A stretch of DNA of 63,651 bases, filler included, from Atractiella rhizophila (Eukaryota): assembly GCA_021432655.1 (NCBI GenBank). It is 7 parts of 7 records of this genome, joined end to end, with 100 filler letters (N's around TTAATTAATTAA, not from the genome) between each part and the next. Parts side by side here need not be neighbours in the genome. Positions count along the whole stretch, not along the records: positions 1 to 11,170 come from MU272048.1; 6 more parts are not named here. One strand, written 5' to 3'. Made by a program: the position numbers and the translations under genes. Below the pieces are notes generated by a model. The model had not been told where the DNA came from and ran no database searches. It saw nothing but the letters and a program-made list of their open reading frames with translations. Shown one piece after another: positions 1,061 through 43,682 of the stretch (the stretch's first letter is position 1; every line of letters begins with the position of its first letter).

Positions 1061-3224
1061 AGCCTCGGTGAAGGATACTTTCTGGGAAGAGGCGTCCTAT
1101 CCACGTCCTGCAAGCACGAGAGATCGATAGTTCGGTCGCAACAGCAGAGGTGCCTCTACGCGTGGATGCTGTAAGTAGTACGACCTAGATGGAGAGTTAG
1201 GCGCAGGGGTATAAAGCAGACCGTTCGGCGTTCCCGATGCAGACGGACAGGAGGAAAGAAAGGAGGGTACTTGCTTCTAAGGTGGCCGATATAAGTCGAA
1301 TCGCGGTTGTTGGGACGTAGCCATCGACAGCTGCTTCGGTTCGCCCAAACCCCTGGGTCGTCACTCTAACGGACAGAACACAGAGAGCCGAGCCCTCAAC
1401 GTGCCCGACAGTTAAACTCGGTGTAAGCCCCACTGTAGGTTCTTCGTGACTTCCGCTATCAGCGCTTAACGTACTTGCAAAGCTTCATGCACTTCCACGT
1501 CTACGTCCTGGCACTCTACCCAGTAACAATAGTAGCGAAGAGCCAACTATGTAAACCTCTGAAGTTCACCCTCCTTACCCTCGCTTTCCTCCTGCAACAC
1601 CCGACGTGCTCCGAATGTACCTCCGTTACTTAGTACTTCACAGTAGGCGCTGCTCCAGCGAGCACGTTTCATAAGAGGAACAACGCACTAACTACCGTCG
1701 TACGACTGAACGGGAACCAATCCGACATTTGTTGCGTAACGACACGGGTCTTTTGAAGGCAACGGAGTATGTCCTCTAACAATACCTTCTCTACTGCTTC
1801 AAGCCTGTCGTTAGTTCACGTAGCAGTGGCTGTTTTTTGTAGAACGTTAGTAGCCACCACGACCTTTACCCTTCAGATGACACCGGGCTGTTTAGAATGT
1901 ACGCTTTCTTCACTTTCTACGTAAGTGCTGTTAACGCCTACCACTCCTCCTTCTGAAAGCCAAGACCCGGGCTACGCTACGAAAGAGATGTAAAAGTAGT
2001 GAACGGTGTATACAAACGGCCGTCCAGAAGCGTTATCGGGGAGCTGGTCCACTTTCACTTGAACCACGACAACGAGCTATAAAAGTGGCAGTGTTCACAG
2101 AGGAATAGAACCTGTTAAAACTTTGGTGGCGTCTCGCACTGTGCCTCGTGGACGTCGGTAAGAAAGTTCGAGAAGAAAGACGTTTGTTATGTGACCCCAG
2201 GTAAGAGTAGCACCGTGTAGCCCCCGTAGCTTAGATAGCTCACTTGCACTGTCTACACCTTAAAGCTCTCGACTGTTAATCTCCGAATAGACTGCGACGG
2301 ACCGACCTGAACAAGTTCGTGGACATGTGCCCTTCTTTCTAAACATGCCTTGTCCACGAGTTCTGGTAGAAGCGATTCGACCTAGTAGTGTGAAACAGCT
2401 AGTTCGAGAAACAAGAAGCACGGTTGCGTCTCAGTTGCTTTGTATAAAGTTGAGACAATCTCCTCACCCTCCGTTTCTTCTGTTTCCACGATACCCTGTT
2501 CCTGTCGCTCCTCTGAGGTTGAGAACGTTGTAGCTAGAGAAAAAGCGAATCGAATGGAGAAGAGCTTTACGTAGTCCTGGATTCGTCCAAATATGAACGG
2601 CGAGACAGGACCTGTGGCCTACCCGAAAACCTGTTACTGTAACACCGTGAACGTCTTTTTAGGTCAGAAGGACTAAGTCCCGTCAGGATGCTCCAGTAGT
2701 GGAGTTAAAAGAGGCAGCCTGAGCGACTTTGACTGCTTCTGCCGGACTGTTTGAGTTGTGCTAACGCGCCTACGAACACCGGTTAAGCACTTGTACAGTT
2801 GATGAGTCAGAATGTACGGCTAGGATCAAAATTTTAGTAACATGGGAGGGAACTCGGACAATGACTCGCAGAGTACGTGTTTCGAGCCCTGTTATAGGTT
2901 CCTAAACTTCAAACTCCCGTTTGCCTATCCCGACAACACAAAGGCGTTGCTGGTAGGTTTAGAACTTATGCACGAAGACCGACCAAACCTCGTAGAAGTT
3001 CTGGGTTTGTTGGTACCAAATAAAGTACCCTCTTTATACCATGAAAGTCATAGTCGTCGTGGAAGATAGTTAGCTTAATGACGTAGCACGAGACAGGTAG
3101 TTTGTCAAATACTCAAATGGTCGCTTTAACTGACGGTTTAACTGATACCGATACCCTAAGCGTCAGGCCGTCTTCGTCCGTGGTGTCGTCCGTAACTTTG
3201 TAAACTTCCTACGCTTCCTCAACA
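1061..3224. CDS. Mirrored segment: C-terminal half of patatin domain + NB-ARC/STAND NTPase + start of helical (TPR-like) region of an NLR; readable only as the complement read left-to-right
   Basis: The complement of 1061 onward gives SEPLPMKDP...VWQAARATSACPPFFPP...ANNP...EAKRVWG...LVSLGSG. It contains a 53-nt GT..GCTGAC..AG intron (1670-1722), Walker A GGAGNGKST (1854-1880) and Walker B LLILDNFET (from 2100), with ~395 open codons after the intron. A few single-base indels (~1612, ~2910, ~3020). Confidence 0.9.
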
Positions 3225-3647
3225 AGCATCTTCAGGCGGGGGCGTGTGTCGCTGGATGATGGAGATCAAAGTCTCTTCGAGCTTCTTCGCCGAGAACAAG
3301 TACTCGCCAGTGGGGTCCGGGTCCTCTTCAACAAATCCGTCTCGCACGATCTCTTCGTACGCTGTAATGCACTGACGTACCGTCATCCCGAGCCTCCCGA
3401 GCATAAGTGCGATCCAACCGCCAGTAGAAGTCCCACAAATGAGATCGAAAACATCGCAAGGCCGAAGCTCTTCGTCTTCCGGGACTTTGAGAATATGTGC
3501 GGCTTGATGTATGATGCGTTCGAGCATGTAGGCTGCTGAGAAAGTACCGACGCCTCCACTGTCGATAGAAAGAATCCGTAGTCCGAGTGGGTTCGCTTTC
3601 TTGATCTCTTCAGGAACTTTGAATACCTTGACGGAATTCGAGGGCAT
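3225..3647 (-). CDS. N-terminal patatin-like phospholipase domain of a patatin-NB-ARC NLR (continues in the mirrored segment)
   Basis: LRILSIDSGGVG, RPCDVFDLICGTSTGGWIALMLGRLGM (GxSxG nucleophile). Ends HTPPPEDA and joins in frame to SEPLP from the complement of 1061. Confidence 0.9.
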
Positions 3648-6600
3648 GTAGGGCAAAATAACAGATTGTTTGATTGTAGTATTAATGAGGAAGAACAGCG
3701 ACTGGTATCGTGGTTAACGGTGAAAAGGAAGGAGCTGCCTGAGTCTGGTACAATCTAGTCAAACTTTTGTTAGCCTTGCTTCTGTGCGTTTCTTGGATAC
3801 AATAGAAATGAATCCAGCTTTGTTAAAATTCGAGAGAGCGATTGGTCGCAACTTCGCCAAACGCAGTGCTTTGCTACTCAGTTCGTTCCCTTGACCCGTC
3901 AAAACTGGCACTGTACCTTTCTCTGAACTGTGCATAGGAGTTCTTTCCCTTCGTAGAAGGAATTAAGTCCTGCTAAGTCTTTTTGGAACTCTGCCAGCGT
4001 ACGTGCGCTTTGGAAGCAGACGAAATCAAGAAAGCGAAATCGCAAGTGCTCCTTCTCTCTCTTTTGAAGAGCAGTTTCGAGACAACGGCAAAGCCACATC
4101 GCTATAATTTCTGTGCTTTTCCTGGGGCGAAACGAGGAAATACTCACATCCAAAAGAGAATTTATGAAATCACACTTCAGCTCTTTCCAGCCCAGAAGCT
4201 ATCGTCGCTCAATGTTATAATATCCCAAACAACTTGTTCCAATTTTTCGGACTTCTTGAGCTGCCTTGGACTTTCTCGATAAATTTCCAACTCTTTCGTC
4301 TCCATGTCTCCATCATCCACAACTGACCCTAACTCACTGAGACGCGTGACGCGTGAACCCTACTTCTTGATTCGCCTCGACTTCTTCTGCCTACGACGAA
4401 TCCTATGAGGAACTCCAGTTAGCCAACCCTACTCCGTCCCGCTGCCACTGCTCGTACCCGATTCCTCTCTGCTCCATCAGGCGACAGGATCGAGTCACCA
4501 GTACTTGCGGCTTGAGGCACTAATGCTAGCCAATCACATGGGTGGATAGCGATATTGGAGACTAAAGCAGACGACAAACGTCAAGGATAGCGGGTATATT
4601 TGGATCACATCCATCGATTTGTCGTTTCATCACCCTTTGGCAATTGAAAACACATCCAAAGGCCAAATTGATACCTGGAGGGACAGAGAGTTAATCAGCA
4701 CAATTTCGTCACATCCTAAGAAGAGTTGAACGCACCTGCGTCTGCGACCGAGCAGCACTCTTCACTTTCAAAATGCGACTGCCAATTGAACCACCTCTTG
4801 CTGCTCGTTTCAACCCCTTCCTGTCAAAGGCCCCTCTTCACCCATTTTCAAGCACACAACCCCTAACTGGTATTCGTGCTTTCTGATGGGCATCCTTGAA
4901 GGGAAAGGTAGTGTGCATTGATCCTGAACTCGGAGGCCAGTAGCAATTGATTTCGCTGATCAACGCGAACGCCTACATTGACGCAGTGCCATTCAGGGGA
5001 ATAGGACATACCTCCCGGCGGACGATCGAGGACGAAATGAAGGTAGGACGTCAATTCCTGTCGAGTGCAAAGGTTCTAGCGCAGCAAGTGCGGGCGTGCA
5101 TCCCGAGAAGCGAGATATGTGAGTAAGATATGAATCACGGAGGCTCAGTGTGCCTCCTAACTTCCAGAGATTATGATGACGGGAGAACCAGAGGGTTTGC
5201 ACACAACATCCGAAATCGTGTCTGTGAAATAACTTAAGCCCTGCTGCCTGATTACGATGCAGTCTCCTGTTCGAGGCAGAGGTCAGGAAATGTCCAATAC
5301 ATAAACCTGAGCAATGTTTCCTACCAGAGAAGGGCCCTGCATGCGAAGTCTTCCTCCTATCACGACGGCTGGTGCGGGTTTTGAGGGACTGAAGAGTGCC
5401 AGTTGCCGCGGTGAGACGATTAAGTGAAGGCAAAAAGGTCTATTACGTTCGAAAAGACCGCCGTGGCTTTGTCCTGCGGTGCAGCCATGGCGGAAGGGAA
5501 GCTGACATGTCGATTGAGCACCAGTCTGGACTGCGCGCAAAGGAAGAGCCGGAGCGGGGCACTATTATCGTCTTCTTAGCATAGGCGAGGTCTAATGGCC
5601 GATGTAGTTGTAAAAGAGCTTGACGGAAACGAAGGGTACTGTATCCAAATCGGCTATGTTCGCCGCCAACAAGGTAGTGACGACGCGTCCTCAATTTGAG
5701 CTGTGGTTAATCCCATGTCTCATCCACACAGGTCTCTACGGTTCCTATTGTTTCAGTAGTGGGAGCCAGACTGATTAGAGGTCATGGTGGTTCTCGTCGC
5801 AGTTATTGTGGAGTCCTGAAAGACTGGACGCGGTGTTTCCAGGTGTAGGTGTAAAGGTGCTGGAATACCTGCACTTCATAACGATCAGAGTTATCAGCGA
5901 ACGGCTCCAGGTTGCGGAGCAACTCAGTTTTGGACTAATTGGGCCACTGGCAATATGGCAATCGATATACTTTGTGAACCACTCGCCCTTCAAGGATGTC
6001 TGTAAACCACAACAGGTTGCAGGGGCTGCTAAAGGCGTTTAATGCAGAATCAACAGGGATGTAAAATGTGCTGTGGTTGCGTCTCATGTCAATACACTCG
6101 CACATGTTGAATGCCCAGAAAGACTGACTGCTGTGTTTCCAGAAGCAAGGAGCGAACCCTGGACAACACACACTTTGAAAGAGATCCAAAGTTGGCGGAA
6201 AAAACTCCCCAACTCAACCTCCACCGTCGATTTTACATTGTCCTGTGCTCAATCCCTCGCCCTCAGCACACCATCCTGTAGTAGAATTATTTGCCCCGCC
6301 TGCCCCTGTAATAGGTCAGAACTGGTCCAAATCCTCACAGCAAGGGGTGAGCGTTCTGCCCTGTCCCTTTATGTGTGGTCTTGCCTGTTGTCTTATGCGA
6401 GCTCTTGGGCCCTGCCTGGACGAAAGCATTCAATCCAGGCTCAGGCGCAAACAGGATCTCCGCACGCCAACCAACAGGCATATACCACAACATCTTGTTA
6501 TTATAAACCATTGCATTGCAAGGTCACTGGAGGAGCTGCTTGCAAAGACTACATTGAAGGAGAAGATATTTGAAACAATAAGGGGTAACATTTTATTACG

Positions 6601-7744: not shown

Positions 7745-9564
7745 TTAATGTACAACGATGGCTAGATTTCTTGCCTCCTGATCAAGCAGATTCCACAATT
7801 CCAGCCTAAGCTCCTTGCCCGCATTCTCGTCTACAGCCAGTCGCTCTTGCAACAGCAAAGCAAGCCCGGTATATCTCTCCAACACAATAAAGCTCTCCAA
7901 CACTGGTCCGAGAAGACATCTGAGTTTCCAAAAGAACATAAACGTCTTCTCGAATCCTTCCCACTCTCCTTGAGCTTCAAGTCGTGCAACATCATTCTCG
8001 TTGAGATGCATCTTCTTCAACGCTTTTGAGCGAAAGGTCTCGTATGAAAGAAAACAAGAGTCCGCCAGTCTACCGACCCTGTTCTCAGAAGGAGAAGGAC
8101 CTTGAGATGCGTCGAGCTCTACTTGTAGACGTGCTCGATAGACAAGTTTGCGCATAGATAGTTCGGCGGATTCCCAGGATGACGCTGAAGACGACCACAG
8201 GATGGAGATTGAGTAGCGAGAACAAGGTGGTTGTGAGTGAAAGTAGGAGAAACATTGCACGTATGAAATGGGAAGTCTTGGAAAAGAAATATGAGACTAT
8301 TCTACAACAGATTGACCGGAGAGAAACCCACTGGAAGAGGAAGTAAGATTGTAGCAACACCCAATCGCGATCAAGACATCTCGACATTCTGCACTCCCAG
8401 AGCTAACGAAAGCGCGCAACGTGTCGATAGTAAGATCTCCACAGGCGTGCAAAGCACAAACTAGCCTTCCCTCTTCCTTCTCCGCACGTCGTTCCTGCAG
8501 AATTTTCCTGATACCGTTCTCATCCAACACTTCCCTTTTCAACGTCAACATCCCTCTTTTATGTTCCTCTTCCTCCTTTTTCTTATATTTTAAACGGTTT
8601 GAAACCAACTTCTCTGCTCCAGTGACTTGAGAGGAGCTGCCCTCGTTCCCACAAACATCACGAAGCAGTGGCTCTCTGGTCAACGCAGCGGAAAGGTGTG
8701 CTCGTCCGGCTCCAATATCAATTGCGCTCTTAATCTGTGGTTCATTGGACAGGAGCGTTTGGGCAAGTGCGATGAAGCGATCGACCTCATGCGCTTTCTT
8801 CGGAGACATGCCATGAGACAATCCGGTAGGAAACGTTTGCAGATGCTAGAGATGGCGTGTGAAGATGAAGCCGCTCTAATTCCTTTGCAATCGATTTCCC
8901 AGCTGAGAAGGGGTTTGCCGCTTGGCTTCCGAGGAAGAGAGAATTCACGACGACGGTTTCAGTGAAACGGGAGCGTCTGGCTAGGCGGCATTTCAGCCAA
9001 TATCTCTTGAAATGAAGATTAAGATTGCAAATAAATGTATGTGACAAGTTGAGAAGGGAATCTCCGGGAGCAGGGAAAGCCAATTCCTACATGCCCATTG
9101 ACGTTGTAGGGTTGGGACAAAGCCACCGCGTTGAATATTGGTCTAAGCCATTTAATAGCGAGTAGGAGAATGTCCAAGACGGTGCTCTGCCATTGGTAAA
9201 TAGACCCAAAATATCATCAAAGCGATTCGAGATGACAGGGATGTCCAATGAAGTACGACTTCTCTCAATTTCTTCTCAAGAGAGGAAACACACCTTCACC
9301 ACCCCCTTGACTCAGATTTTTGAACGTGGATTCCACAACACTCCTTGCGAGAATTCCGTCGTACCATCCCTCCCATTCGCTTGGGACCATTTCTGCTGCT
9401 TTGTTCACATCGAAAGTACCTGGATTGATAGGGGACTGTCTGGAAAAAGAATTGCTGGATGAGGAGCAGAGCCGAGTGATGGTGGAATCGTGAAGGAAAC
9501 TCGAGGTTTCTGCAAGTGAAAAGGCAGCGGTGGGAACATTATCGACATTCTCCGACGAGGTCAA
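7745..9564 (-). CDS. METTL25/RRNAD1-like SAM-dependent methyltransferase (Methyltransf_32), with frameshifts; 5' end uncertain
   Basis: MSPKKAHEV, AIDIGAGRAHLS, ALHACGDL, IGCCYN and the C-terminal LRCLLGPVLESFIVLER...RNLAIV occur in different frames. A probable N-terminal exon (VPSEWEGWY) lies at 9265-9564. Confidence 0.75.
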
Positions 9565-9699
9565 ATTGAAACTTGAACAAAAGATCCTAGCTGCAGTGCT
9601 GAGTCATGCCCTCTGCCCTGAACACGGTTCTTTGCTTCGCTCCATTTCCTCCGTTCCAACTCGGCGAGACGTTGCGGCATCGACCACTGCATCCGCTCA

Positions 9700-10740
9700 C
9701 GACCCAACGTATCCAAACATCGAAACACTCCTTCCTCCGACAAACGGTCTTGCCTGCGCCTCCAACCCGTGCACTCAGCCATTCGAGCACCATCGTTCCC
9801 GTCACCACTCCATCGTCCATCTCCTCCCGTCTTCAACTTGTCGGACTCCAATCACGACCGTCGACTTGAACGACACGTAGCCAGTTAGGATGCGAGCAAC
9901 AAACTGCTAAAACGACTGGTTGAAGAAAGGACGGATGTGGAGGGAGAGGGAGCGGCGTATGTGTCGCCTTTCGACCACGAGGTTATCGCACAGGGAAATA
10001 CCAGTCTGGTGGGGGAAATCAAAGACCAAATGGGAAAATGGGCTTCAAGCCGGATGGAATACTTGTCTCTGCTAGAGGTGGTTCATTGCTTGGAGGTGTG
10101 TTGATGGGACATGAAGCAGTACGCTGGGATCACGGTGCGCTTGCACTCCTTATTCTACTCAGTGCAAAGATCTACGACTGATAGATTCAACAAGATGGAA
10201 CAGTACCAGTCGCTGCTATCGAAGTGATCGGAGCGGCATCGCTCCACACATCCCTCTTTGCCTCATACACGGACCACAGTGCGCCGACTCCAAAACTCGC
10301 GTCATTGGAAGCAAGAACCTTCGTCGGCTCGGTAGGACCCAAAGACAGTCCCGAAAGAATGTATAAGGCGTTGCCTTACTCCCAAAGGAGGCGTAACGAG
10401 TGTGATAGTTGAAGACTTAAGGGTAGTGGACATGATTGAACGCTTTGCTGGTTCGTCTTCCTACCTGCTTGCTTTCATCAACAAAATCGTCTGGGGCTTA
10501 TAGGGATCGATAGAGACCATCAAATCCTCGTCAAACCTGCCGTCGTAGGTCTTGCACCTTTCTATGCAGATGGAGCGCCGGAGCACTTGAAGAAGATATT
10601 CAAGGGATCTGCCGAAGGACAGAGCAGCCGTGTTTGACGTTTTTGTTTGTGGAGGTAGTCAGGTGTCAATGGCGAAATTGATGGAGTGGAAACCACGGTT
10701 TGAGGACGTGCCGTTGGGGGATATTAAGGTCTTTGTTAAC
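9700..10740 (+). pseudogene. Degenerate second copy of the serine dehydratase gene
   Basis: Colinear nucleotide similarity to 1-1035, including intron positions. TGG>TAG at 9886-9888, frameshifting indels (e.g. near 10038), and the GGGG loop altered to RGGS. Confidence 0.75.
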
Positions 10741-11270
10741 TGGATCTGTGACGGTGGCATTTCGTTTCCACAAACCTGATCTCAACAAAATCTGGCTTAA
10801 CGGTATCGTTGTATCTCATTTGGACTTCCAGATACCAACGGATCCTGTTGATATGTCAAGGCACAAATGACACATCCTCCATTCAAGACTTTATGACAGC
10901 TGACAGCATTGCTTTGATGAAGAGTTACATCCTGCAATAGGAGGTCAGCTTGCACAAAGCAGTAGCGTCAGGGCACTACCTGAATCATTTTGACGCGTAG
11001 TCGTTGATCTCTCCGCTTCATCGATTTTCTGAAGCAGATTGTCGCAATTATGGACGTCGGAAGTGGCAAAACAATCCGAGTAAAGCTGACGGGCGCGACT
11101 AACTTCCTCTCGCGCGACGAGGTATTGGGACGTTCGGAAGAGGAGTTGGGCCAGGTTCTTTCTACTCCGANNNNNNNNNNNNNNNNNNNNNNNNNNNNNN
11201 NNNNNNNNNNNNNNTTAATTAATTAANNNNNNNNNNNNNNNNNNNNNNNNNNNNNNNNNNNNNNNNNNNN

Positions 11271-11818
11271 ATGATCCAGGTCTTGGAAGAGGAACCGCCA
11301 CCTTTACCGCCATTACCCTCACCATCCTGCGGTACAGGAGTCCCGGGAACACCCGTGGAGAAGGTAGAGCCATTTTCAGTCACGACGACTGTGACTACTG
11401 GAGTAGAGAAAGAGGTAGTTTTCTCCTTCGTCTTCGTGCTTGTGTCTGTAGACGAGGAAGTAGTCGAGCTGCTGGAAGAGCTCGTTGTACTGGTGCTAGT
11501 ATCGGAAGAGGTGGTCGAACTGGTGCTGCTGCTTGACGTAGATGACGAAGTCGACGTGCCTGTGGTGGTGTCACCTCCCGGAAGGACTCCGCCTCCATTG
11601 TCTCCACCACCAGTTGGGTCTGTAGGAGCTTGCCTCGCCACGAGTTCCCTCCAATCTCTCCTCTCGAATCGCCCATTCTCTCTCACATCCTCGTACCGCT
11701 CCTTCAACTCTGAGCGGGAAGAAGACGAACCAAAGTTCCTTCCCTGGACGAGGAGGAAAAGAAAGAGCGAAAGACCAATAAGATAGTGCCGTCGACGAAT
11801 AGCCATCGCGCGTGCCAT
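11271..11818 (-). CDS. Ser/Thr-rich secreted or single-pass membrane protein (Mid2-like), 3' truncated by linker
   Basis: Hydrophobic N-terminal segment YLIGLSLFLFLLVQG, a long S/T tract, ending SSSKTWI just before a presumed TM helix at the linker. Confidence 0.65.
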
Positions 11819-17955: not shown

Positions 17956-18055
17956 NNNNNNNNNNNNNNNNNNNNNNNNNNNNNNNNNNNNNNNNNNNNT
18001 TAATTAATTAANNNNNNNNNNNNNNNNNNNNNNNNNNNNNNNNNNNNNNNNNNNN

Positions 18056-20130: not shown

Positions 20131-21632
20131 TTAGGATCGGTAAAGGGCACGTTTAGCGACTTTGACAATGACCGAGGTCTCAGGGAAAGCCATTCGCTCC
20201 AAGTTAGCAGCGTAAGGTGTGGGCAGGTCAGCTCCCGTCACACGCTCTACTGGCGCATCCAAACTGCCAAAAAAAAATATGAGAAATGGACGCAGGAAGG
20301 TAAGGGGACGCACTAATCGAATGCCTCGCTCTCAAGAATTTGAGCTGCAATTTCTGCTCCGACACCGAACATGGGGAAACCTCCTTCAACAGTGACCAAC
20401 CTACCCAGCGAAGTCAGATGGGAGGAGAATAAACGAGTGGAAGCATACCGGTTGGTCTTTTTGACGCTGGCAACGATGGTATCCATATCAAGAGGTCTGA
20501 TACTCCTCAGATTGATAACCTCCGCCTTCACGCCTTCCTCCTTCTCCAAAATCTCCGCCGCCTCCATACAAAGCGAAACCATCCTGGAGTGCCCCACCAG
20601 GGTGATGTCTTTGCCCTCTCGCTCAACCTTCGCCTTGCCAATGGGGATGAGGAAGTCGTCTTTGAGCGCCTCCTTGGAGACGGGGAAAGAGGCACCGTAG
20701 AGGATTTCGTTTTCGAGGACACAGACTGGGTTGGGATCACGGATGGCGGACTTCAGGAGACCCTTGCAGTCTTCCGCTGACCAGGGGGAAACAACTTTCA
20801 ATCCCGGGATCTGGCCGTACCTGATGCAGAGTAAGCTTCACGAAGAGTGCAATGTATGTGCAAGGCAGAGACGGACCAAGCGGCATAGTCTTGAGAGTGT
20901 TGAGCGGCCACACCAGCAGCTGCTCCGTTGGGACCACGGAAAACGATTGGGCATGGAACGTTTCCGCCAGACATGTAGTACGTCTTTCCTGCTGAGTTGA
21001 CAATTTGGTCAATAGCCTATGTGTCTATGTAAGCTCCAGCCGCAAAGTGGGAGGTAAAACACACACCTGCATGGCAAAGTTCCAAGTCATGAACTCGCAG
21101 ATTGGGCGAAGACCAGCGAAAGCAGCTCCAACTGCAAGACCCGCGAACCCCATCTCGGTAATTGGCGTGTCCACCACACGCTTGTCGCCATATTTATCCC
21201 ACAAACCCTTTGTTACCTGACAAGAAACAGGGATGAGGCGAAGTCCATCAACTAAAGGACGCGCCATACCTTGTAAGCTCCGTTATACTGAGCCACCTCC
21301 TCTCCAAGAATGAAAACATTCGGGTCTCGGGTCATCTCCTCATCCATAGCCTGGTTCAGCGCTTCACGGCAGGTCATCTTCCTCCATCCAAAACAGTTGC
21401 ATAAACGTCAACAATTCCCTTCCCATTCGTCAAACGATAGAATGCGCACCTCCCCACCCTCTTGACTAGAAGCCGACCTCTTCTGTCCGACTAACGAAGG
21501 CCTAGCATTGATCATAGCAGCCTTAACACCGACCGTCTTCTGCCATGCTGGAGAAGGGATGGACAGCCGGCTCGAGTTGGAAAATTGGCGGAGAGTCGTG
21601 GACACAGGGCGGAGTAATGAGCGGCTGGCCAT
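20131..21632 (-). CDS. PDB1: Pyruvate dehydrogenase E1 beta subunit
   Basis: [64 protein letters not shown]. Confidence 0.97.
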
Positions 21633-27678: not shown

Positions 27679-29161
27679 ATGAAAGGCAAAATCATACTCG
27701 AGGAAGCTTTTCAACTTCCTGAACTGTAAGTGTTCTGATCATTAGTCCGTTGTGATGTTCGGGAAGGCTGTAATGACGAGCAACAGGCGCGAAGAAGCGA
27801 AAGGTTATGCTGGTCCTAATGGTGTAGACCTCTTGGAGACCCAGCTTGTCGAACTGGACAATCGGCTTGCTATGATGGACGAAGCTGGCGTGGAGTTCCA
27901 AGTCCTCTCCCTCACCTCCCCTGGTCCGCAAGGCATTACGGATCCTGAGAAAGCAGCCGCTCTTGCAGTGAGAGGAAACGAGTGCGAGATTTCGCCCGTT
28001 TCGCGTATTCGATGTTAATATGTGCTAACAGTTACATTGCTGAATTCGTGGCCAAGCACCCCACTCGTTTCTCTGCTCTGGCTAGCCTCGCGATGCATGA
28101 CCCGCATGTTGCTGCCAAAGAGGCTCGAAGAGCGATCAAAGAACTTGGTCTTTGTGGAATCATTTTGAATGACTTCCAGAGTGCTGGTGATGGAAACGAG
28201 ATGATTTTTTATGATGATCCAAAGTGAGTGTTACCTATGACAGGTCACTTGAAAACTAAAGGTGGTAACTAGATTTGATCCATTCTGGTAAGCCACGCTT
28301 GTGATAAATGACAGGAACCGTAGTTTAATATTTATTTGTGCTAAAGGAAAGAGATTCAAGAACTCGACGTCCCAGTGTACATGCACCCACGAATTGCAAC
28401 ACCTTTGATCTTTAAGGTAAGACTCGTGGTTTCCTGCCTTGACGAAGCTAAGCTGAATCACTGCCGTGATTTAGCAACTATATGCGAAACGACGATGGTT
28501 AGCTGCATCCGCATGGGGTTTCGCATCACAGCTTTCTCTGCACGTTCTTGGTATCATCACCTCAGGAGTCTTCGACAGATTCCCAAAGGTTGGAATTTCC
28601 TCCATGTGACATGTTTGCAGCAAATTTGTTCATGATTCCCGGTAATCCATCAGGTTCAAATGATTATTGGGCATCTTGGAGAACATATACCTGCGGACTT
28701 GGAAAGACTAGACGTAAATTTCGATCCCTTGATGTTACGATGAATGTTCATTGTTCGACCAGCATCGACTCGATAGAGATCGCTTTCAAGACCTTCCCAT
28801 GAACCCCCACAAGCTGGTGCGCGACTACTTCGCAACGAATGTCCACATCACGGTATGGTTCAATATACTCGCTTAGTGCAGCCTCTTAATTAAATTGTGA
28901 AGACTTCAGGCAATTTCTCAACGCGAACACTTATCTCTTGCATGACTGAACTCTCCAGTGACCGTTGTATGTTCTCCGTTGATTATCCTTATGGTGCGCT
29001 TTCTTCGTCCGTCCGTTGCATCTGTTTGATTAATTCTCCGTCATCACAGAGGACAGCCTGCTGGAAGGCTGCACATGGATGGATGAGCTTGAAATTTCGC
29101 ATATCGACAAGTTGAAGATCGCTCGAACGAACGCCATCAAGCTGTTGAAACTTGATCGCGC
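27679..29161 (+). CDS. Amidohydrolase-2 family, 2,3-dihydroxybenzoate/gamma-resorcylate decarboxylase-like; 3' end at linker
   Basis: KIILEEAF, MDEAGVEFQVLSLTSPG, DVPVYMHPR, SGVFDRFPK, IIGHLGEHIP, TSGNFST, FSVDYPYE. Confidence 0.88.
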
Positions 29162-30751
29162 NNNNNNNNNNNNNNNNNNNNNNNNNNNNNNNNNNNNNNN
29201 NNNNNTTAATTAATTAANNNNNNNNNNNNNNNNNNNNNNNNNNNNNNNNNNNNNNNNNNNNACAGGGCTATCGTTAATCAAAGTCATAGCCATTATCTGC
29301 TCTTACATCGCCGGCATCGTTGCTTTCACGGCTGGTATGGTCGGATTTGTGCACACAAGGGAATTCGTTTATTGGCCAGCGCTCCTTTGATCTCTTTCAG
29401 TCTTGGATTCAATTCACTTCAAGCGGTTTTTGTTACAGTTTGTTTCACAACGCAGCGGTACATCTGATAATATATAAACAAAAAGATGAGGCAGCACGAA
29501 ATGAGAAGAATATGAGCTACCGCTTCAGCTCGTGCTAGCCAGGATCAGTCCTGATCATTCTGCCTGTATCAACGCTTACTCCAACAGAAGTTTGAATATC
29601 TTGTTCTTTACCGCTAAAGTAGAAGTTTTCAAGAGTGGCGAAAGAACCTTTTGCATCAAATGTTGGGGCTGAGCCACACCGATCATCGAGTCCCTTGCTA
29701 GAATCCTCAGTAATTGTAATGGGCTGGCCATCAAGTTTGCCTCAGGGATATCCTCCGCATAACTGTACTCCAGATCTTATGCAGACAATTGCTCGAAGTC
29801 GAGAATGAGGGCTTGTTCAAGCTCGAAAAGTTTCCGGTCAGCGGGACTACAATCGCACAGCCCTATCCTACCTGACACATCCTCAAGTATTCCTTTGGGA
29901 TGACGCACTGTATGACAACGCGGCAAGCAAGAACGTGTTCATCACTCCAACCTGACAAATCTACTTCGAAATTCTTTGCCGTACGGTGAGGTGAGATTGC
30001 GCCGTGTAAGCGCAGGCAGTGTTGATGCGTCACCGATATATCTGCGATAAAACCTGTTCTCGAAAAGTTCTGGTTTGCGAATGGAACGAGGCTGTCGAGT
30101 GATGAGGTGGCGGGGAGACACTTGGCGTGCTCTTGCAGCGTTACGGCGTGCTTTGCGCTTTCCATTGGCCCTATTCGAGGTACGAGGGCCGCTCAGCTTC
30201 AATGGCGTGTTTGCTGGCGAGGAAAAACTGTCGACGGAGGTATGGGTCGTCGCTGTCTGTGTCGTAGGATCATCATGATGTTACCTTTCGAACTGTGTTC
30301 TTATTAGGATATTTTTGTTGTTCGTGACCACTGTAATTGGACGGGCTACGAGCATCCTAACAGGAGGTGGAACGGAAGAAAGTAGAAACGAAACATTCAA
30401 GCCGTACCTACATTTATTACTCGAACATGACAGCACACGGTGCACTTCTCAGTCGATCGCTGGAATATTGGAAATGGCTTGAAGAAAATAGTGCGGGAAT
30501 GATACAGTGCAGGTGCGCGAAACCTTGTCGATTTCTGTGAACGAGACAGGAGCAAAGCTTAGGTTGAAACGGGTTGAAAACCCAAAGGTTTAAGCAACCC
30601 TTCCCGCTCTTTTATTCCAAGTTGCCCCTCAGTTGCCTGGAGTTACTATAATTCTAGTTATGCCTTCCTTTGTGATATCCAACTGAACATAATTGCGCCG
30701 CAAAGTATACACAGAGAAAGACGAAAGACCTCAAGTGGATAACTGCGTATG

Positions 30752-31742: not shown

Positions 31743-33775
31743 ATGGACTTCAGAGTCACCAAAGGGGCGGCCATCAACGTGCCCGTTGGAAGTGTTGCCT
31801 CATAGCCGTATTCTAGCTCTTCCAAAGAGGGTCGTTCAAAATCTTCTATAATCTGGTTCTCGATCTCTGCACCCCTACTGATTTAGCTATTTTCCCTTTC
31901 TGCCATGAAACACACCTGACAGATGATCAAAGAATTCCGCTGGAATCACCCGCCGTATCGGTAGTGCTGTCAAGGGCACAACCCAATACACGTTGGATAG
32001 GTGCGGTCCTCTCAAATGAGACTGCTGGCGAAGCAGTATACAAGCCATGGCCAGAGGTCAAGGACGGCGCGGAGGCTTGGATCACAGCGTACCGTGGAGG
32101 GGATCGCAGAGTCCTCCTCAACGAGAAAGTCGTCCGGAGTGGAAGTAACTGGACTCAGCTGAACCTTCGAGCGTTGCACGTTATTCCATACTGTGGACAG
32201 GATATGTCTGCGATGGTGCCAGATTCTGAAGAGTTTGACGCGGCTAGAGGGTCAGACTGTTAGTATCATATCATTGACAGCATAAAGTAGCTACTGAGTG
32301 CGATGTAGTGTTCAAGGAGATTACAGCCGCGATTGCGGAAGAAGACTCATCAAGCGAATACTTGAAAGATTTTCGAAAGGCTTTAATTTTCGCTACGCGA
32401 AAAGGTTTCCGTATTCCTGCAGTTCGCTACGACAAATCTCGACCTCCAGCTGAGGATCCCGATCTGCAGTCCGAGCCAAGCACCCAGGGTTCCCCCCCTC
32501 CTGTTCCGGAAGGAGCGGGAGAAGAGACATCTCTTTTTGCAGTTCTCGAAGTGGACTTGGAAAAGCCGCTTGTCCTCGAACGCAAGAAAACAATCGTGCC
32601 CTCCACTTCCTCAGTCCGAGCTGGCTCGTCTACTAAACCGCCCAAAAAAATCACCCAGGTCAAGGTTCCAGAGCAGGAAACTTCGTATGAGGAAGTCGCA
32701 TACGCGTTCATCCGCCTTGCCTTATTAGCGTGTGGAGCCGTCCCTGGAGAGGAAGCAACGAAGAAGAACATCCTGGCTTGGCCTAATCTGAGGACCAGGG
32801 AGGAGAGGAGGGCGAGAAGGTCTTCCAGAGTGGCAAGGCTTCCGCTGGGGACAAAAAGTCCCGAAGAATTTGTTTGGCTAGGACTGAGGTAGGTGCTGTC
32901 CTAACTATGAGGTGCAGCAGCTGATGCAGCCCAATCGCTGCTGCAGTCGACATCGTCAGGCCACTAATTGGGTGATGGGGGGCCAAAGGAAGGGTGGTCA
33001 CGGCAAACCAGACCAACTATACGTTTCCAGGACTGATGGAGCCATCGTAGTCATGCTGCTTGCGCCGGAAAGTTCTTCCAGGGCGCAACCAAGCCCAGTT
33101 ATTCCGAAAGGGGAAGAAGCAGAAGTCGAAGCTGAAACGGAGGACAACAAGGAAATCACGGTTAAAGATGCCCTTGCACCATTAAGAGATGCGACTCCAG
33201 AGGAAAGGGTCGTTCACCATCAAGGCAAGGAACGGTTGGTGGTGGCTGCAGAGTCGCAACCTGTCATCCAAATCGAAGTACGTTCTCACTGATTCTGGTA
33301 TCTCCGTTGACGCTCGACAGACCAAAACGAGTAAACATACTCCGTATCAGATGCTGCCCCAACAAGATGCAGAACTGATCGCCAGGGCACTGAAGCCATT
33401 AAAGGACCAGAAATACATCGATTTGAGCAAGTGTACCGACTTTTATCCCCAAGACGAAGTGAGTGACGGATTAACCTTCGTCTCAAAAAAATCTAAGCCG
33501 ATGTATTGTCTTAGGCTTGGCTAATTTCCTTTCGAGGTTTACACATGCACTTCGTGAAGACTATCTTCACAGCAGACTACCTCGCTGCTCTGGTGAGAAA
33601 GCAAGACCTTGAAGATCTCTATCGAGACGATTTCCAGAGCAAAGAACTAGATATTCTAGACCCAGGGGAGCGCGCTGATGCTTTCTATTATCTAACCAAG
33701 CTTTTGTGTTACCATAGATCGCCCAAAGCGAGACAAAACATGCGTGTGCTTCATAATGCATACAAGAGTCTGTAA
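31743..33775 (+). CDS. Multi-exon protein with a putative PD-(D/E)xK restriction-endonuclease-like C-terminal domain; exon 1 interrupted
   Basis: Spliced motifs ETSYEEVAYAF...YVSRTDGAIVV...PVIQIE|TK...PQQDAELIA...PQDE|AWLIS. Introns 33278-33320 and 33459-33514. In-frame TAG or indel near 31803. Confidence 0.55.
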
Positions 33776-34031
33776 TCGTTCAGTTCATATGGTCTTCTGT
33801 CCTCGTTTCCTCCTTCGTGGATACAAGTGGGCACCCTCATGATTGGTTCCCTTTCTTCACTACTCCATCGATGTCGAACAACATTCTTGTTATGTATTTA
33901 CCAGATTCCTCGACTGTGTTGTAATGCGTCATAAGTGACTTTACATCACAGGCTGAAATTGGACAATCAACAAACATTGAAGTAAAGAACGAAATTAAAT
34001 CGAGTCCATTGTCCATCCACAATTCACAATA

Positions 34032-35356
34032 TTACTCCTCAGCGAAGGGGCTGGGGTCGATCCTATATTCCCTCTTCTTGGGATAAGCGGATCCAGCGAT
34101 GGAAGTTGTCGTGGTGCAGCTGTACGTCTTAGTGGTCGGGTGGGCAGCAGGAGTGGTTTTGTCACCCTGGTGGAAGGTTGACGTTCCATAAACACCGGGA
34201 GTGAGAGGATCAGAACCCTGGCACTTGTCGAAGTAGCCGACGTCGTAGTTTCCGGGGTCGTTCCATTCACTGCCCAGCTCGTCGTAGATGTGAGGACAGT
34301 AAGCCTTCTCTCTGCCAGTTCCGGGAATGCACACCTATCCATTCATGCCTTGTCAGCTTAACAGCGCAAAAGCGGACATGGGGGGTGGACAAACGCGAAT
34401 GGAAAGCGTGTTGTAATCGATGAACTCGTGCCATTCCGCATATTGGACTTTCTTGCCTTTAAGAGAACCGATGACGAGGCCGCCTATTCCACAGGGTAAG
34501 ACAAGGTGGCATCAGACCTATCGAAAAGAGCCGGAGTAAAGGAAGGAAGAAGGTGGACGGACCAATGGGATTGCCCTTGCCGCTGGGACCATGAGGATCA
34601 AGCTCTCCTCCCTCGTCGCCCTTCAACACGTTGACTTTGGTGAAGTCGCCGGTACAGGTGATTTGGAGGAATGACTTGGTTTGCAACCAGTGGCATCTAT
34701 TTGAAAGAGATAGTGTTAGAGGAGACGGCTGATACTGGGAGGAAAAGCACGACATACCCTTTCAAAGTCCCGGCAGGAATGAGCCTCGCACCGTGACCTA
34801 TTCAGTCGAATCTTTATCAGGGATGTACTGTCACATTCAAAGCACGAACCAGGTTTAGTGCACCAAGCTACCTGTTCACAAATCACTCATTTAAGCCTTC
34901 GTTCCGACTAAAAGGTAAGCAAGGAAGACGCACAACAGTCTCTTCGACGTCGCCGATTGTCTTACCCTTGCTCTGAGGAGCGAACATGCCTGTCGCGACC
35001 CCAATCAGCTTGAGCGATGGGGGATGGGAAGAGAAGGCACGGACACCAATCGTCGATGCTGTATATCCAGGCAGTTTGACACTTGCTATCAGACAGCAGA
35101 ACGCTTCAGTAACTTGCCGAAGAGGAGTATACCAGAAACAGACCTGGAAGCGCTGTCAACAGTCCCACAGTCGTTGTACCCGCTTTGTCCCTTCCCACCA
35201 GGAATCATCAGTCCCCCTTGCTCCATGGAAACACCGCCTGAAACTCACTTCTTCGCTCTGATGAGGAAGATTGTTGGGGTCGACAATTGCACCGGCCTTG
35301 ACGAAGTTGAGCAGTGTGCCCGCGAGAGCAACAGTTAGAAGGGTGGATTTGAACAT
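34032..35356 (-). CDS. Secreted Cys-rich glycoprotein of the MP88/macrophage-activating glycoprotein family
   Basis: Signal peptide; CQTAWIYSIDDWCLFAP, VAWCTKPGHGARLIPAGT, GGELDPHG, CPHIYDELG. Confidence 0.8.
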
Positions 35357-35694
35357 GTTTAGTGGGTTGAGGTAAAGAATGTGAGGCTAACGAGTGTTAG
35401 ATTATGAAGAATTAGGTAGATTCCCAGGTTCAAAGCTGAAAGAGTCGAGAGAGGCTCGTGAGCTCGATCGAAGGGAATGGAGACAAATCAGAACGACCTG
35501 ATGCTTTTTATATCCTCAGCGATCGGTAGAAAGAAAGTTGAAATTTTGAAACCCCGCTTTCCATCCGATCTTCCCAGTTCACCTTCTTATTCGACTCCCT
35601 TTTACTGCTTCTTTTCCTTGTTGTAGGCTGAGCGCTGAGCAAGAACCTTGCGATAAGAATTATTGCGAAGTCATTCGAGCCCAAGAGAAATTGA

Positions 35695-36099
35695 ATGTCC
35701 ATTTGTAAACCAACTCCCTCGACACTTCGTCTCCTACTACGCGTCACTCCAAACGCTCGCCGTACCTCCATTTCTGCTCCCTCAAGTTTTGAAAGGGCAG
35801 AGGCGGTCGCGCTACGCGTAGCGGCACCTCCAAGGGATGGAGAGGCGAATGAAGAGGTCATCAAGTTCATCTCCAAGGTAAACCTTGTCGCCTATTCATC
35901 ATTTCTAGAGGAAGTAGAAAGGTTGACGCGTTCTTGGATGGTTGGGGCGCACCGGTTCCATTAGGCGCTCAGTTGCAGCAAAGGATCAATACAGATTGTC
36001 AAAGGTTTGAAGGGGAGGGATAAAGTTGTCCAAATTGAAGGTGTGCACAAAGAGGTGGAGGAGGTTCGGAAGCTCTTGGAGGGATTAGTCGACAGATGA
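35695..36099 (+). CDS. DUF167/YggU (UPF0235) protein
   Basis: LRVTPNA...VAAPPRDGEANEEVIKFISK|AL...IVKGLKGRDKVV, one intron. Confidence 0.85.
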
Positions 36100-36649
36100 G
36101 TCTGAAAACAGTTCAAGTGTCAATGGCTACTACGTCCACAAGATAACGAGTCGGAATACGAATGAAATGCATGAATGATGTTCAACTACTAGTATAGATA
36201 GATCTACTTCTGTGCTACCATGAGGAAGATGTTTTGGTTTGTGATGACACTGCGAAAACTCTGCAAAAACACCATGAGACGAAACATTGTTAAGAACATG
36301 ATCTGAGAGAGAGTTTGAGTCAAGTAAAGGCAGAAGAACATGTAGTGAATGCTGCAAGAGCAATACATATCTTAATCGAACGAGAAATGACGACTATCAC
36401 AAAATTAGACGAAAAATAAGCACAGCATTCGAATGTTAGAAGAGACAGCTTTCGTCTGTTCAATTAACAGAGGCAATGCGCCAATGTCCAAGAAGGGAAA
36501 AGGACATGATATGGCTGAGCCGGCGTAGGCCAAAACTAGCTCCAATTTTGGGTCGACGTTAGGCTGTTTTGAGAATAGATTTTCCCTGACGAAAGAAAGC
36601 AGATGGGAGAGGGGCACACTGGAGCGGTCTGGATTGTCCAAGTGTACGG

Positions 36650-38300
36650 TCATGTGGCTACCTCTTCTTCAACCCCACCTCCTTTTCGAGATGAATCTAA
36701 CTTGAAGCCCATCCATCCCTCATCCCCTTCCTCTGCTTCTTCCGCACTAGATATATTCGACATTTGATCCAGCGAGGCGTCATCCCTTCTCAAGACAGAG
36801 CTAAGGTCACCGTCACCAGTAGAAGTTTCCATCGGTGTAAATCGACAGGTGACACCAGCAAGTCCACAAGCAGAACACCGATTACGTGTGCACACTCGGT
36901 TGAAGCGGCTGTTAAAGAACGCACATCTTCAGTCAGACAAAGAAAGGTCGAAGGCACATGGAGTACATAACATACCGACAGGCATTGCAGCTCTCTTCTT
37001 TCTCATCCTCGGCGCCTTCACGTCGAGTCTGGGGGTTCGTCACGCTCACTGGCCAACTGCACGAGGTCTTGTTCCATACGCAGGGAATACAGGACGCCGT
37101 ATCCTGCGGTCTATTGCCATGTTCCGGTCCACAGTACTTATTCAACCGCCTAGAGGCTCATCAGCCTCTTTAAAGTACTAATGCCTCAGACATTCAGTGG
37201 GAAACGCACCGGCAACGATCACACTTCTCCTCTAATGATTGTACCCCACGAGCTTTACGAATACCCTTGGCACTGTGTCATTCCACTTAGCTCTAATTCC
37301 CGAGAGCAGACACCTGAGGACGCTTACCCTTGTTTAGAAGTTGTTGCGGTGCGTTTCTGTTTTACTAAGGTTTGCTTCTGGTTAGAGCGGCGACGCTTCG
37401 GCGAAGGTCCGGGAGAAGGTTTGGGAGGAGGAGCTTGTGAAGGTCGTGCTTCTTTGAGAAGTACATCGATCCAGTCCAACGGAGGGTTCCGAGCAGTCTT
37501 CGGCGCAAGCGGAAAGCTGAACCTCGGCTCAGAGGTTGCAAGAGGCGGTAGCAAGTGGGTTTGAGCAGCAGAGGATGTCGACGCCCCAACTAGTGGGAGA
37601 CGCAAGGACGTTTTCGCTTGAACCCACTGGTTATTTGGACCTGGCACCTGCGAAGGAGCAACGGGCTCAGGACTACGCTTTCGCTTTCCGAGGACCGATT
37701 GGTGTAGAGTCGCCGTCGTGACCTGTGACACCCTCACTGTATAAAGAGCGATTAGGGAACGAACGAATGTTGAGAAAGAGGGACGGACCAAGAGGCGGCC
37801 ACTCTCTGTCTTGCTCCATCTCTGAATCCAAATTTTCCGTATACCTGCCATGATAATCACTTCACCAAGACGAACTTCTACTCCGATAAACGCCTACCCA
37901 TCTGGAAAATCGCTCTCGCTGTCGGTTTCGCTGGACGATAGAATGTATGGAAGCCCGCGATTTTGCCCCGGGTGCAGCATTCTGTCTTTCGATGAGCACA
38001 ATTCTCATATTGAGGAAAGCTTAAATACCCGATTCCCTGCAGGTTCATTATTCTGCGCTCTTCCAAGTGCGACGGGCAGGTGTACAGTCGGCCTCCCCAC
38101 CAAGACGGCTTGCAGGTCCGCTGTGCTCAAGGATGAGTGCCCCACCTCTGGATTTACAACTAAAACCAACCTGATTCGCCACACATGACCCTTAATACAA
38201 GCTCAATCAGTTTTTATCAGAGATCGAAAGGCAACGAACCGCAGGGTGATTGTTCCTGGAAGGTGCAACGGGTCTTTATGGTGGCGCAAGCCTTGCAGGT
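36650..38300 (-). pseudogene. Degenerate multi-exon gene of unknown function (Pro/basic region and Cys-rich segment)
   Basis: Coding-like stretches (LGKRKRSPEP, CTRNRCSACGLAGVTCRF) broken by stops; no family recognised. Confidence 0.3.
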
Positions 38301-40020: not shown

Positions 40021-40412
40021 GTCTGTAAAAACTGGTTAATGAATTGGACAGAAAAACGTCTCAACAGTAAAAAAGAATGCGGACACAGCTCCTGATTGTG
40101 CTAAGGATGTAGAAGATTGCTTTTGAGAGTAATGTTAACCCCATATCTACTAAACTGGACAAAATTAATGCTAGTATGGTTCCGTATTTGAGTAAGGATT
40201 TCGTCGCAACTTGTAGAATCATCTAAAGCAGGACTCGCAAGTTGTCAATGGAACACACCTTTGCTTTCGAAGCTTCAAGGCACTCATGCCTCCGGCATTT
40301 AACACCCAATTANNNNNNNNNNNNNNNNNNNNNNNNNNNNNNNNNNNNNNNNNNNNTTAATTAATTAANNNNNNNNNNNNNNNNNNNNNNNNNNNNNNNN
40401 NNNNNNNNNNNN

Positions 40413-41228
40413 TTTTAGCGCACTACCTCTGGAGCTCGTAGATGAGATTTTATTCTTCCTCAAGCTATTATCTTTTTCCTTCGACTCCAACTTTGATGCC
40501 AAAGCTGCCGATAATTTGGGCAGAAGACACGGGCTGGCCTCCTTCATTCGATCTGCCAAAAGGTTTGTTGATATCGGAAGACGACATCTTTACGACACAC
40601 CGTGGCTGAAAGGATGGTATCAATGGGAGGACCAGAACGATGAAGTCTTGTTTCTGCAGACTTTGAAGCGGAGTCCTCAACTGCGCAATGTGGTCAAAAA
40701 TATTAGCTATGACTTGGCTATCGGGCTCCACGGTAGGTTAGCGAGCTTGTCCAGGATTCTGCAGGAAGCAAAGCATATTAAATCACTGTCTCTGCAAGGG
40801 GTGTTCCTTCCTGCAACCGCTTGCCTTTGGTACTAAGTTTTCCGTATTCAGGGTTAACTTCAAACGCCTGCGTTTACATCATGATGCATTCGACTAGTCT
40901 TTACAGTCATCTAAAGCTTCATGGGGTCCCAGACGAGCACCCGCTTCAAATATCTGACTCAGTCGACTACCTCTCACGATTTCGTTCGCTTCGCGAGCTT
41001 GAGCTTCGTCATGCGACATTTGACCGTTTTGAGCCTTCGTTCGGGAACCTACCGAATACTACTACTGCCACTGACTATTGCTTTGACAAACCTGATTTTA
41101 GACTTACAGTGTTAGCCGGCATAATTGGGCCTGACTTTATGCCCATACCCTTCCAACCTTGCAGACTCTTGTCTGGGAAGAGGTTGTATGTAAATGTACC
41201 GAAACCATCGGTACTTGGAGGAACCTGA
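40413..41228 (+). CDS. F-box-like / LRR-like protein, 5' truncated by linker
   Basis: ALPLELVDEILFFL...FVDIGRRHLY...FLQTLKRSPQLRNVVKNI, followed by LxxLxL repeats. Confidence 0.65.
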
Positions 41229-41448
41229 CTCGGGAATCTCCGTGGGAACATGTCCTTTCGTTAGGAGTTGAACTGCCATGTCCCGAATGTTACATGTTGA
41301 CAATTCGGAATGCTGAAATGCGCTGATCACAGACTTATTTTCTTTCATAGCTGTTGTAACCTTTCGTATCCTGCAAAGTGTGCTCTCTCCTCTTCTTCCA
41401 TCTTATGAGTATGGGTCCCTGAGGACTGCCATTTTCCCCAAAAGGCGA

Positions 41449-42302: not shown

Positions 42303-42658
42303 NNNNNNNNNNNNNNNNNNNNNNNNNNNNNNNNNNNNNNNNNNNNNNNNNNNNNNNNNNNNNNNNNNNNNNNNNNNNNNNNNNNNNNNNNNNNNNNNNN
42401 NNNNNNNNNNNNNNNNNNNNNNNNNNNNNNNNNNNNNNNNNNNNNNNNNNNNNNNNNNNNNNNNNNNNNNNNNNNNNNNNNNNNNNNNNNNNNNNNNNNN
42501 NNNNNNNNNNNNNNNNNNNNNNNNNNNNNNNNNNNNNNNNNNNNNNNNNNNNNNNNNNNNNNNNNNNNNNNNNNNNNNNNNNNNNNNNNNNNNNNNNNNN
42601 NNNNNNNNNNNNNNNNNNNNNNNNNNNNNNNNNNNNNNNNNNNNNNNNNNNNNNNNNN

Positions 42659-43470: not shown

Positions 43471-43682
43471 GCACTCCATCGGCACGTCCATTCAATTCCC
43501 ATCGAGATTGCCAGGCGGATCGCTGCAAAAACAACTCCACAACCTTTCTAGACGCGTTCTTGTTTGCATTCGAGAAGTCGGCTTATTCATTCCTCACTTC
43601 CAAAATCTTTTGACGCGGGAGAATATCTGCAGGATTCGGTCTTGGGTCGTTGTCAATACCCTTAAAAGCCAGAAACGGGAAG

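Follow-up and report, generated by a model that had tools for sequence, protein, structure and literature searches.

A gap-adjacent block written reversed but not complemented very probably hides most of a patatin and NB-ARC-type NLR-like gene of an Atractiella-related basidiomycete

The closest described systems to the gene considered here are PLP-1 of Neurospora crassa and its counterparts, HET-Z1 of Podospora and those of Botrytis and Cryphonectria, which combine a patatin-like N-terminus with NB-ARC and TPR domains. PLP-1 recognises SEC-9, self-interacts in cell death and needs both its patatin domain and its P-loop, according to the portions of two publications that deal with it (PMC12881547, PMC10197012). 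A NOD-like receptor (NLR)-like gene that is comparable to them by architecture only is predicted near the start of the stretch of DNA analysed here (the window; 63,651 nt, filler included, from assembly GCA_021432655.1, listed under Atractiella rhizophila). It is located on the minus strand between positions 1061 and 3647, and most of it cannot be read from the deposited letters.

The region 1061-3224 is very probably a data artefact, written reversed and not complemented beside a gap, such that base 1061 adjoins base 3225 in the true order, over a minus-strand patatin and NB-ARC-type NLR-like gene of an Atractiella-related basidiomycete, which is cut where its TPR region starts. The first scaffold runs from the 3' part of a plus-strand PALP gene (pyridoxal phosphate-dependent enzyme), up to position 1035, through 25 N and the mirrored block, to normal sequence from 3225. 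The true minus strand of the block is the complement of the deposited letters taken from left to right; the reading frame is continuous where base 3225 joins base 1061. An initial annotation of this DNA had stated that the minus-strand patatin open reading frame (ORF) stops at ...HTPPPEDA, that 1061-3224 gives nonsense in all six frames, and that ordinary annotation would record only a 145-aa fragment. All of this was borne out: the ORF at 3219-3656 (minus strand, 145 aa from a TTG, with an ATG at 3645-3647) ends in these residues, followed by C and a stop, and the longest normally read open stretch in the block is 81 aa on the plus strand and 95 aa on the minus strand. Reversal of 1061-3224 in place by script (all coordinates quoted are the deposited ones) and rejoining to 3225 restored, as had been proposed, a patatin and P-loop NTPase NLR-like gene with homologues aligning across the junction, and every motif that had been quoted was found at its deposited coordinates. 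The complement had also been said to continue the protein exactly in frame; this holds at the junction 3225/1061 and fails further inside, where three single-base frame breaks occur.

Four kinds of evidence carry the mirrored reading. Taken as left-to-right complement, the block contains an open stretch of 425 aa, against the 81 and 95 aa of the normal readings, and none of 1000 dinucleotide-preserving shuffles of the block reached this length (mean 126 aa, sd 30, maximum 312). Composition was compared using a strand-symmetric Markov model of orders 3 and 4, trained on the rest of the window. The log-likelihood as written minus reversed was negative in all six 500-nt windows of the block (mean -13.8 for order 3 and -15.5 for order 4), whereas 226 leave-one-out windows outside it gave a mean of +9.7 with a standard deviation of 4.9.

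Homology gave the same picture. The N-terminal 141 aa retrieved 32 longer relatives (designated below by P numbers), the best being Atractiella rhizophila proteins with 55-63% identity. In tblastn searches of the un-mirrored sequence, 29 of the 32 crossed the junction in a single high-scoring segment pair (for example residues 105-422 of P0001, with 57% identity and E 3e-122), while against the sequence as deposited not one of the 32 passed gene position 476, which is the junction; the alignments of P0008, P0025 and P0027 stopped short of the junction in both versions. Public sequencing runs provided the fourth line of evidence. Contigs holding part of 1061-5400 were taken from three runs (X1-X3), and those lying on 3224 or 3228 onward have left loose ends that match the reverse of the first bases of the block (1062-1088), with 26 of 27 letters for X2 at 3224 and 24, 23 and 25 of 30 letters for X1, X2 and X3 at 3228; the loose-end consensus and the reversed block were compared by eye. 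X1 and X2 also contain contigs with zero differences over 4402-5400 and 4734-5140, and because of these difference-free contigs to the right of the block the source organism, or a very close strain, is judged to be present in both runs. Depth was 0 in 14 of 14 bins over 1061-3090 in all three runs, cover beginning in bin 3091-3235; this zero cover was not counted as evidence. When the reversed window was compared by BLAST with the window as written, no matches appeared, i.e. it contains no mirrored duplicates.

Inversions yield the reverse complement, and we know of no biological process or rearrangement that reverses a strand without complementing it. On this ground, together with the ORF, composition, homology and run-contig tests, we take the artefact as settled. 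It lies over a known type of gene, and the mirrored state is not itself biology.

The features of the locus are listed in the order of the gene, with the gap last. Rows within 1061-3224 refer to the complement read from left to right, that is, the true minus strand.

3225-3647, minus strand: 5' part of exon 1, normally written; Patatin match of 40.4 bits, with DSGGVG at 3546-3563 and GTSTGG at 3417-3434
1061-3224: mirrored block, 2164 nt reversed and not complemented, from ORFs and shuffles, k-mer log-likelihood, homologues and run-contig loose ends
1061-1609: rest of the patatin-like domain, from homologues, with YIQLSANNP at 1289-1315
1220-1246: WQAARATSA, mirror reading
1376-1396: LVSLGSG, mirror reading
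1610-1614: frame break 1, one base missing relative to homologues at a GG run, the frames overlapping by one base
1612-1669: last part of exon 1, read in the shifted frame (AYMEAMNHEV..SLVQ) and shared by P0001, P0005, P0007 and P0034
1670-1722: intron of 53 nt, phase 1, GT..AG, split codon AGC; its size fits the 35-56 nt introns of the control gene
1723-2912: exon 2, NB-ARC-type STAND NTPase, from homologues and profile
1779-1802: CYGRDDEV, mirror reading
1854-1880: Walker A, GGAGNGKST, mirror reading
2100-2126: Walker B, LLILDNFET, mirror reading
2202-2225: ILIVAHRG, mirror reading
2379-2408: GLPL-like LDHHTLSIKL, mirror reading
2532-2549: SISFSL, mirror reading
2913: frame break 2, an extra T in a TTT run that leads to a stop after ..GFEV; homology to P0034 resumes in the next frame
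2914-2982: post-NTPase linker EGKRIGLLCFRNDHPNLEYVLLA, aligned to P0034 residues 506-529
2983-3013: zone of frame break 3, which shifts the frame by a single base close to CCC/AAA/CC runs
3014-3224: final 70 codons before the gap, aligned to P0034 residues 529-609 and ending in ..QQALKHLKDAKEL
3185-3223: QQALKHLKDAKEL, mirror reading, end of the gene at the gap
1036-1060: run of 25 N, whose neighbour in the true order is deposited base 3224, the 3' end of the remaining gene

The domain order is patatin-like, then NB-ARC-type NTPase, with Walker A and Walker B intact. After the first break the homologue sequence ..VVGxTKAYME.. resumes in the next frame, and the canonical 53-nt intron that had been proposed was found with GT..AG borders at 1670-1722. 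The conceptual product comprises 836 aa, with an X at each of the three breaks. It is 55% identical to P0004 (E 1e-162) and 46% identical to P0009 (E 6e-157), and its residues 229-836 are 41% identical to residues 1-609 of P0034 (E 1.6e-141). The five-exon pyruvate dehydrogenase (PDH) E1-beta gene at 20134-21377, used as control, has no frame break and introns of 35-56 nt. One of its exons (20316-20837, minus strand) shares 90% identity with Atractiella rhizophila, against at most 76% for the named matches that follow, for which reason the gene is assigned to a basidiomycete of the Atractiella lineage; this exon and the Atractiella homologues agree with the basidiomycete NLR-like gene of the initial annotation.

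The class of the NTPase was examined by profile comparison. Walker A (GxxGxGK[ST]) and Walker B (hhhhD) are present, with the G, G, G and K invariant in the alignment of the relatives. Among 24 long relatives scanned, 12 carry patatin and NB-ARC, seven patatin and NPHP3_N/NACHT, two patatin and ankyrin only, and three no family at 1e-5. Two profiles were built, one from the 12 Pfam-verified patatin-NB-ARC regions and one from the seven NACHT/NPHP3_N-type regions. The product scored 33.7 bits on the NB-ARC-type profile (E 1.2e-12, residues 359-607, profile positions 4-244 of 340) and 2.9 bits on the NACHT/NPHP3_N-type profile; NACHT-type controls reached 0.3-16.9 bits on the NB-ARC profile. Among solved structures, and with TPR matches set aside, the Atractiella-type family profile matched the NB-ARC of ZAR1 best (6j5t_G, E 2e-9), and Atlas neighbours of the P0034 NTPase are annotated with nSTAND1 in 94% and with NB-ARC in 65% of cases. 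Among more distant relatives, NB-ARC reached 34.6 bits in P0037 and 23.8 bits in P0035, while P0013, P0009, P0033 and P0034 gave sub-threshold nSTAND1 scores of 19-20 bits, and P0013 and P0009 have sub-threshold nSTAND1, AAA and NACHT matches only. On the strength of 33.7 against 2.9 bits, the ZAR1 match and the nSTAND1/NB-ARC annotation of the neighbours, the NTPase is assigned to the NB-ARC-type STAND class, as a divergent member below the Pfam threshold. The NB-ARC label given in the initial annotation thus keeps the support of our own profile and of ZAR1 and loses that of Pfam, whose NB-ARC model stays below threshold in the close relatives.

On the deposited fragment 3222-3713 (minus strand), Pfam Patatin (PF01734) scored 40.4 bits against a cut-off of 27.7. 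The match covers only profile positions 1-108 of 191, which indicates that the domain is cut mid-way; the remainder, in the mirrored block, aligns to Pfam-positive relatives. The nucleophile elbow G-x-S-x-G is present as GTSTGG at 3417-3434 and is kept by 22 of the 24 relatives aligned, with P0029 reading GVGTGG and P0026 a GTSTGG-like context; in about ten of the more remote relatives the serine is missing too, and the motif reads GxGxGG. Patatins use a Ser-Asp dyad, with the catalytic Asp in a D-G-[GA] motif before NNP. This canonical motif is absent from the gene, which reads YIQ--LSANNP with a two-residue deletion, and in the BLAST alignment the D of FIDAG in P0097 faces a Q. The Asp motif is lost, with the same two-residue deletion, in 10 of 10 Atractiella relatives (P0001-P0007, P0009, P0010 and P0013), while D[GA]x is kept in 13 of the 14 others. 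In place of the oxyanion motif DGGGxRG, the gene has DSGGVGT and the Atractiella clade DNGGIxT, the glycines being retained and the basic residue absent. These counts are from the alignment. A regular expression for the Asp motif over 161 of 180 relatives plus the product (162 rows) was flawed and its count was rejected, as an upstream D-S-T or D-G-A made the gene and P0006 falsely positive and three D-G/A-Q cases escaped it. Because the Asp motif is missing clade-wide, canonical Ser-Asp phospholipase chemistry is doubtful in the Atractiella-type clade. A further, tentative step that we consider rather unlikely to hold in full is that Atractiella-like fungi possess a lineage-specific patatin-NB-ARC-TPR clade, in which the Asp and the oxyanion basic residue were lost in every member seen and the elbow was kept, so that the patatin part might act as a death domain with different chemistry or as a non-enzymatic adaptor; separately, and at the same low level of confidence, gap-adjacent mirrored blocks may be systematic and hide further genes.

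The sequence ends at the gap, at the point where the TPR-family matches of P0034 begin (581-594, the alignment extending to residue 609). P0033 and P0034 carry TPR_12 after the NTPase, with 61 and 166 bits respectively. A TPR-like helix running towards the gap had been described. The segment does sit where the TPRs of the relatives begin, but the TPR domain itself is absent from the window, and to the left of the gap comes the 3' end of the PALP gene, on the opposite strand, and hence no DNA coding for TPRs; to judge from the relatives, that DNA is to be expected within the gap at 1036-1060 or past it. Two observations on P0034 are added: the N-terminus annotated for it (MAITESKRIWG..) matches the final third of the patatin domain of the present gene, so that the model is either cut at its 5' end or has a patatin remnant only, and it carries a C-terminal BAG domain after the TPRs.

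Several points weigh against the reading of the block as a mirrored patatin and NB-ARC-type NLR-like gene. Domain calls inside 1061-3224 rest on script-side comparison with fetched relatives. The loose-end contigs are in part paralogues (23-25 of 30 letters), and the best of them (26 of 27) is a single contig from a run labelled with another organism code; the run contigs support the natural orientation of the gene family more firmly than that of the exact locus. The closest NTPase-bearing relatives, P0013, P0009, P0033 and P0034, have no Pfam NB-ARC (PF00931) match, and P0034 marginally passes NACHT with 27.9 against 26.7 bits. With three frame breaks and the TPR part missing, an intact functional receptor is not demonstrated by the sequence, and as the PDH E1-beta control gene is break-free, the breaks are no general feature of the assembly.

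The last two points bear on the alternative that survives best, to which we give nearly, though not quite, an even chance: the artefact is the same, but the gene beneath it is a dead pseudogene, a decayed copy of an expanded family in which the breaks and the loss of the catalytic Asp are real. Three breaks within about 1.4 kb, against none in the five-exon control gene, are what such decay would produce, and break 2 creates an in-frame stop. The run contigs also point to a setting where pseudogenes occur often: over 3236-3670, the N-terminal region of patatin, X1 has 169 contigs, 83 of them at 90-95% likeness, with 90-99% across X1-X3. So many distinct contigs suggest that the source organism has a large family of paralogues, the summed depth being no measure of copy number. 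On the other hand, all three breaks are located at short homopolymer runs (GG, TTT and CCC/AAA/CC) and within a block evidently made by a faulty gap extension, which fits consensus errors; no further stops occur, and 41-57% identity is kept throughout the product. The loss of the Asp motif, being common to 10 of 10 Atractiella relatives, is a trait of the clade and not the decay of a single copy. We hold it about equally probable that the three breaks stem from consensus errors in a gap extension of low quality and that they are real pseudogenising mutations.

As to the origin of the mirroring, a gap-extension error is suggested by the position of the block, exactly between the remaining scaffold gap and the body of the contig. 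A tool extending the contig leftwards into the gap on the reverse strand may have pasted its extension back complemented; a reverse-strand extension complemented instead of reverse-complemented would leave a 2164-nt piece beside the gap inserted reversed and not complemented. A run of 25 N is a common minimum-gap convention of long-read gap fillers, whose inserted consensus is prone to homopolymer indels. Whether the source was an assembler or gap filler, a script of the submitter or later handling of the record is not distinguishable from the window. No description of a reversed-not-complemented assembly error was found in the literature by a narrow, phrase-based look, which brought up work on regulatory genomics instead and is weak evidence of absence.

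It is improbable that the mirroring was added after the public assembly, by file handling or preparation of the window, and is absent from the archived record. The window itself gives no sign of where the error arose, and its sequence had already been post-processed, scaffolds being strung together through 44 N, TTAATTAATTAA and 44 N at 11171-11270, 17956-18055, 29162-29261, 40313-40412, 51435-51534 and 62508-62607. These six-frame-stop linkers join separate scaffolds, and the pieces that meet at one of them do not adjoin in the genome; a section of PMC539331 describes a comparable six-frame-stop separator, used there in pseudomolecules of unfinished genomes. Such later damage would be expected to fall at random, but the block fills precisely the space from a scaffold gap to contig sequence, another reversed-like block begins directly after a further in-scaffold gap, at 42659, and this placement at gap edges fits a gap-extension bug better. 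That the deposited letters are genuine, with a 145-aa patatin remnant beside unrelated sequence and mirror ORFs due to coincidence or natural rearrangement, is next to impossible: although the record has no gap or linker at 3224/3225, none of the 1000 shuffles produced such an ORF, real proteins match the mirror reading with 41-57% identity along some 830 residues, public-run contigs part from the deposited letters at 3224/3228 and continue as the reversed block does, and reversal without complementing has no biological mechanism.

The second suspect block lies at 42659 to about 43430, to the right of a gap of 356 N (42303-42658). The score of -7.7 for its first 400 nt (42659-43058) compares with a background of +7.8 (sd 4.4), in which 4 of 140 windows fell below 0, and overlapping 300-nt windows ranged from -4.4 to -10.3 up to about 43430 and were positive thereafter, a layout as in the confirmed block. 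When 42659 to about 43430 was un-mirrored, no junction-spanning ORF of at least 120 aa was obtained for boundaries from 43300 to 43559; the mirror ORFs of 96-112 aa were unconvincing, and no protein was found in mirror reading. This region is a possible second mirrored block, as its composition alone would have it. An adjoining ORF at 43415-43975 (plus strand) matches the Velvet factor profile at positions 1-23 only (residues 148-170) and has no upstream in-frame Met; the rest of the Velvet domain was not found in downstream ORFs of at least 130 aa at E 1e-4, which introns or the suspect block may explain. Weaker composition outliers at 11271-11670 (-4.2), 37200-37599 (-3.9) and 40813-41212 (-4.6) stay within the range shown by 4 of 140 background windows and are probably due to chance. 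The mirror ORF was slightly longer than the normal one in 4001-6000, 9001-11000, 28001-30000, 33001-36000, 46001-48000 and 56001-58000. Inspection of 46578-48200, 36600-38200 and 40413-41600, the last two flagged by composition, yielded no protein-like reading. A Pfam scan of 41 of the 51 ORFs of at least 130 aa (10 overlapping ones were left out) gave otherwise only ordinary housekeeping families. Among these 41 ORFs no further NLR parts were found, and no SNARE-family match at E 1e-4, the latter a weak test of sec-9-like linkage.

The gain for biology is small, being one more patatin/NB-ARC/TPR NLR-like gene from a little-sampled basidiomycete lineage, truncated and possibly broken. For data quality the finding weighs more, as a mirrored segment is invisible to six-frame annotation and to BLAST, reducing a gene of at least about 840 residues to a 145-aa fragment. 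Two screens are usable assembly-wide, namely mirror against normal open stretches and Markov likelihood as written against reversed, and further mirrored blocks may exist in the assembly, given the second gap-adjacent block of like composition. Research on NLR effector domains gains a modest lead from the fact that the patatin Asp motif is missing throughout the clade.

Compared with known proteins, the gene is closest to Atractiella rhizophila proteins annotated as 'FabD/lysophospholipase-like' and 'TPR-like' (P0001-P0010, P0013, P0033 and P0034), with 39-57% identity over patatin and NTPase. It has in common with them the two-residue deletion, the loss of DGG, the retained GTSTGG, Walker A and B and the HPLSI-type motif, and differs in apparently belonging to another species than the one whose proteome is deposited, as the housekeeping exon is only 90% identical, and also in being cut at the gap, in its three frame breaks and in being mirrored in the record. 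The Pfam-verified patatin-NB-ARC-TPR proteins (among them P0097, P0144, P0049, P0076, P0141, P0157 and P0170) are collinear with the product over patatin and NB-ARC, residues 23-635 aligning to residues 12-646 of P0097 with 27% identity (E 5e-40). Unlike the Atractiella-type clade, they keep the DG[GA] Asp and pass Pfam NB-ARC at 33-59 bits (44.5 bits for P0097 and 42 bits for P0144). The plant-type comparison, ZAR1 (PDB 6j5t), is matched in its NB-ARC at chain residues 185-305, which is the nucleotide-binding subdomain only; in contrast to the gene described here, ZAR1 has a coiled-coil N-terminus and leucine-rich repeats and neither patatin nor TPR. By analogy with PLP-1, a protein of this kind might sense a ligand through its TPR repeats, themselves predicted from the relatives, would oligomerise in a nucleotide-dependent manner through the P-loop NTPase, and may cause cell death through the N-terminal patatin domain, an effector whose chemistry the missing Asp motif makes uncertain. 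In lacking the canonical patatin Asp motif, and in having its TPR part outside the window, the gene differs from PLP-1; its architecture is already known, and it adds a member to the patatin/NB-ARC/TPR class.

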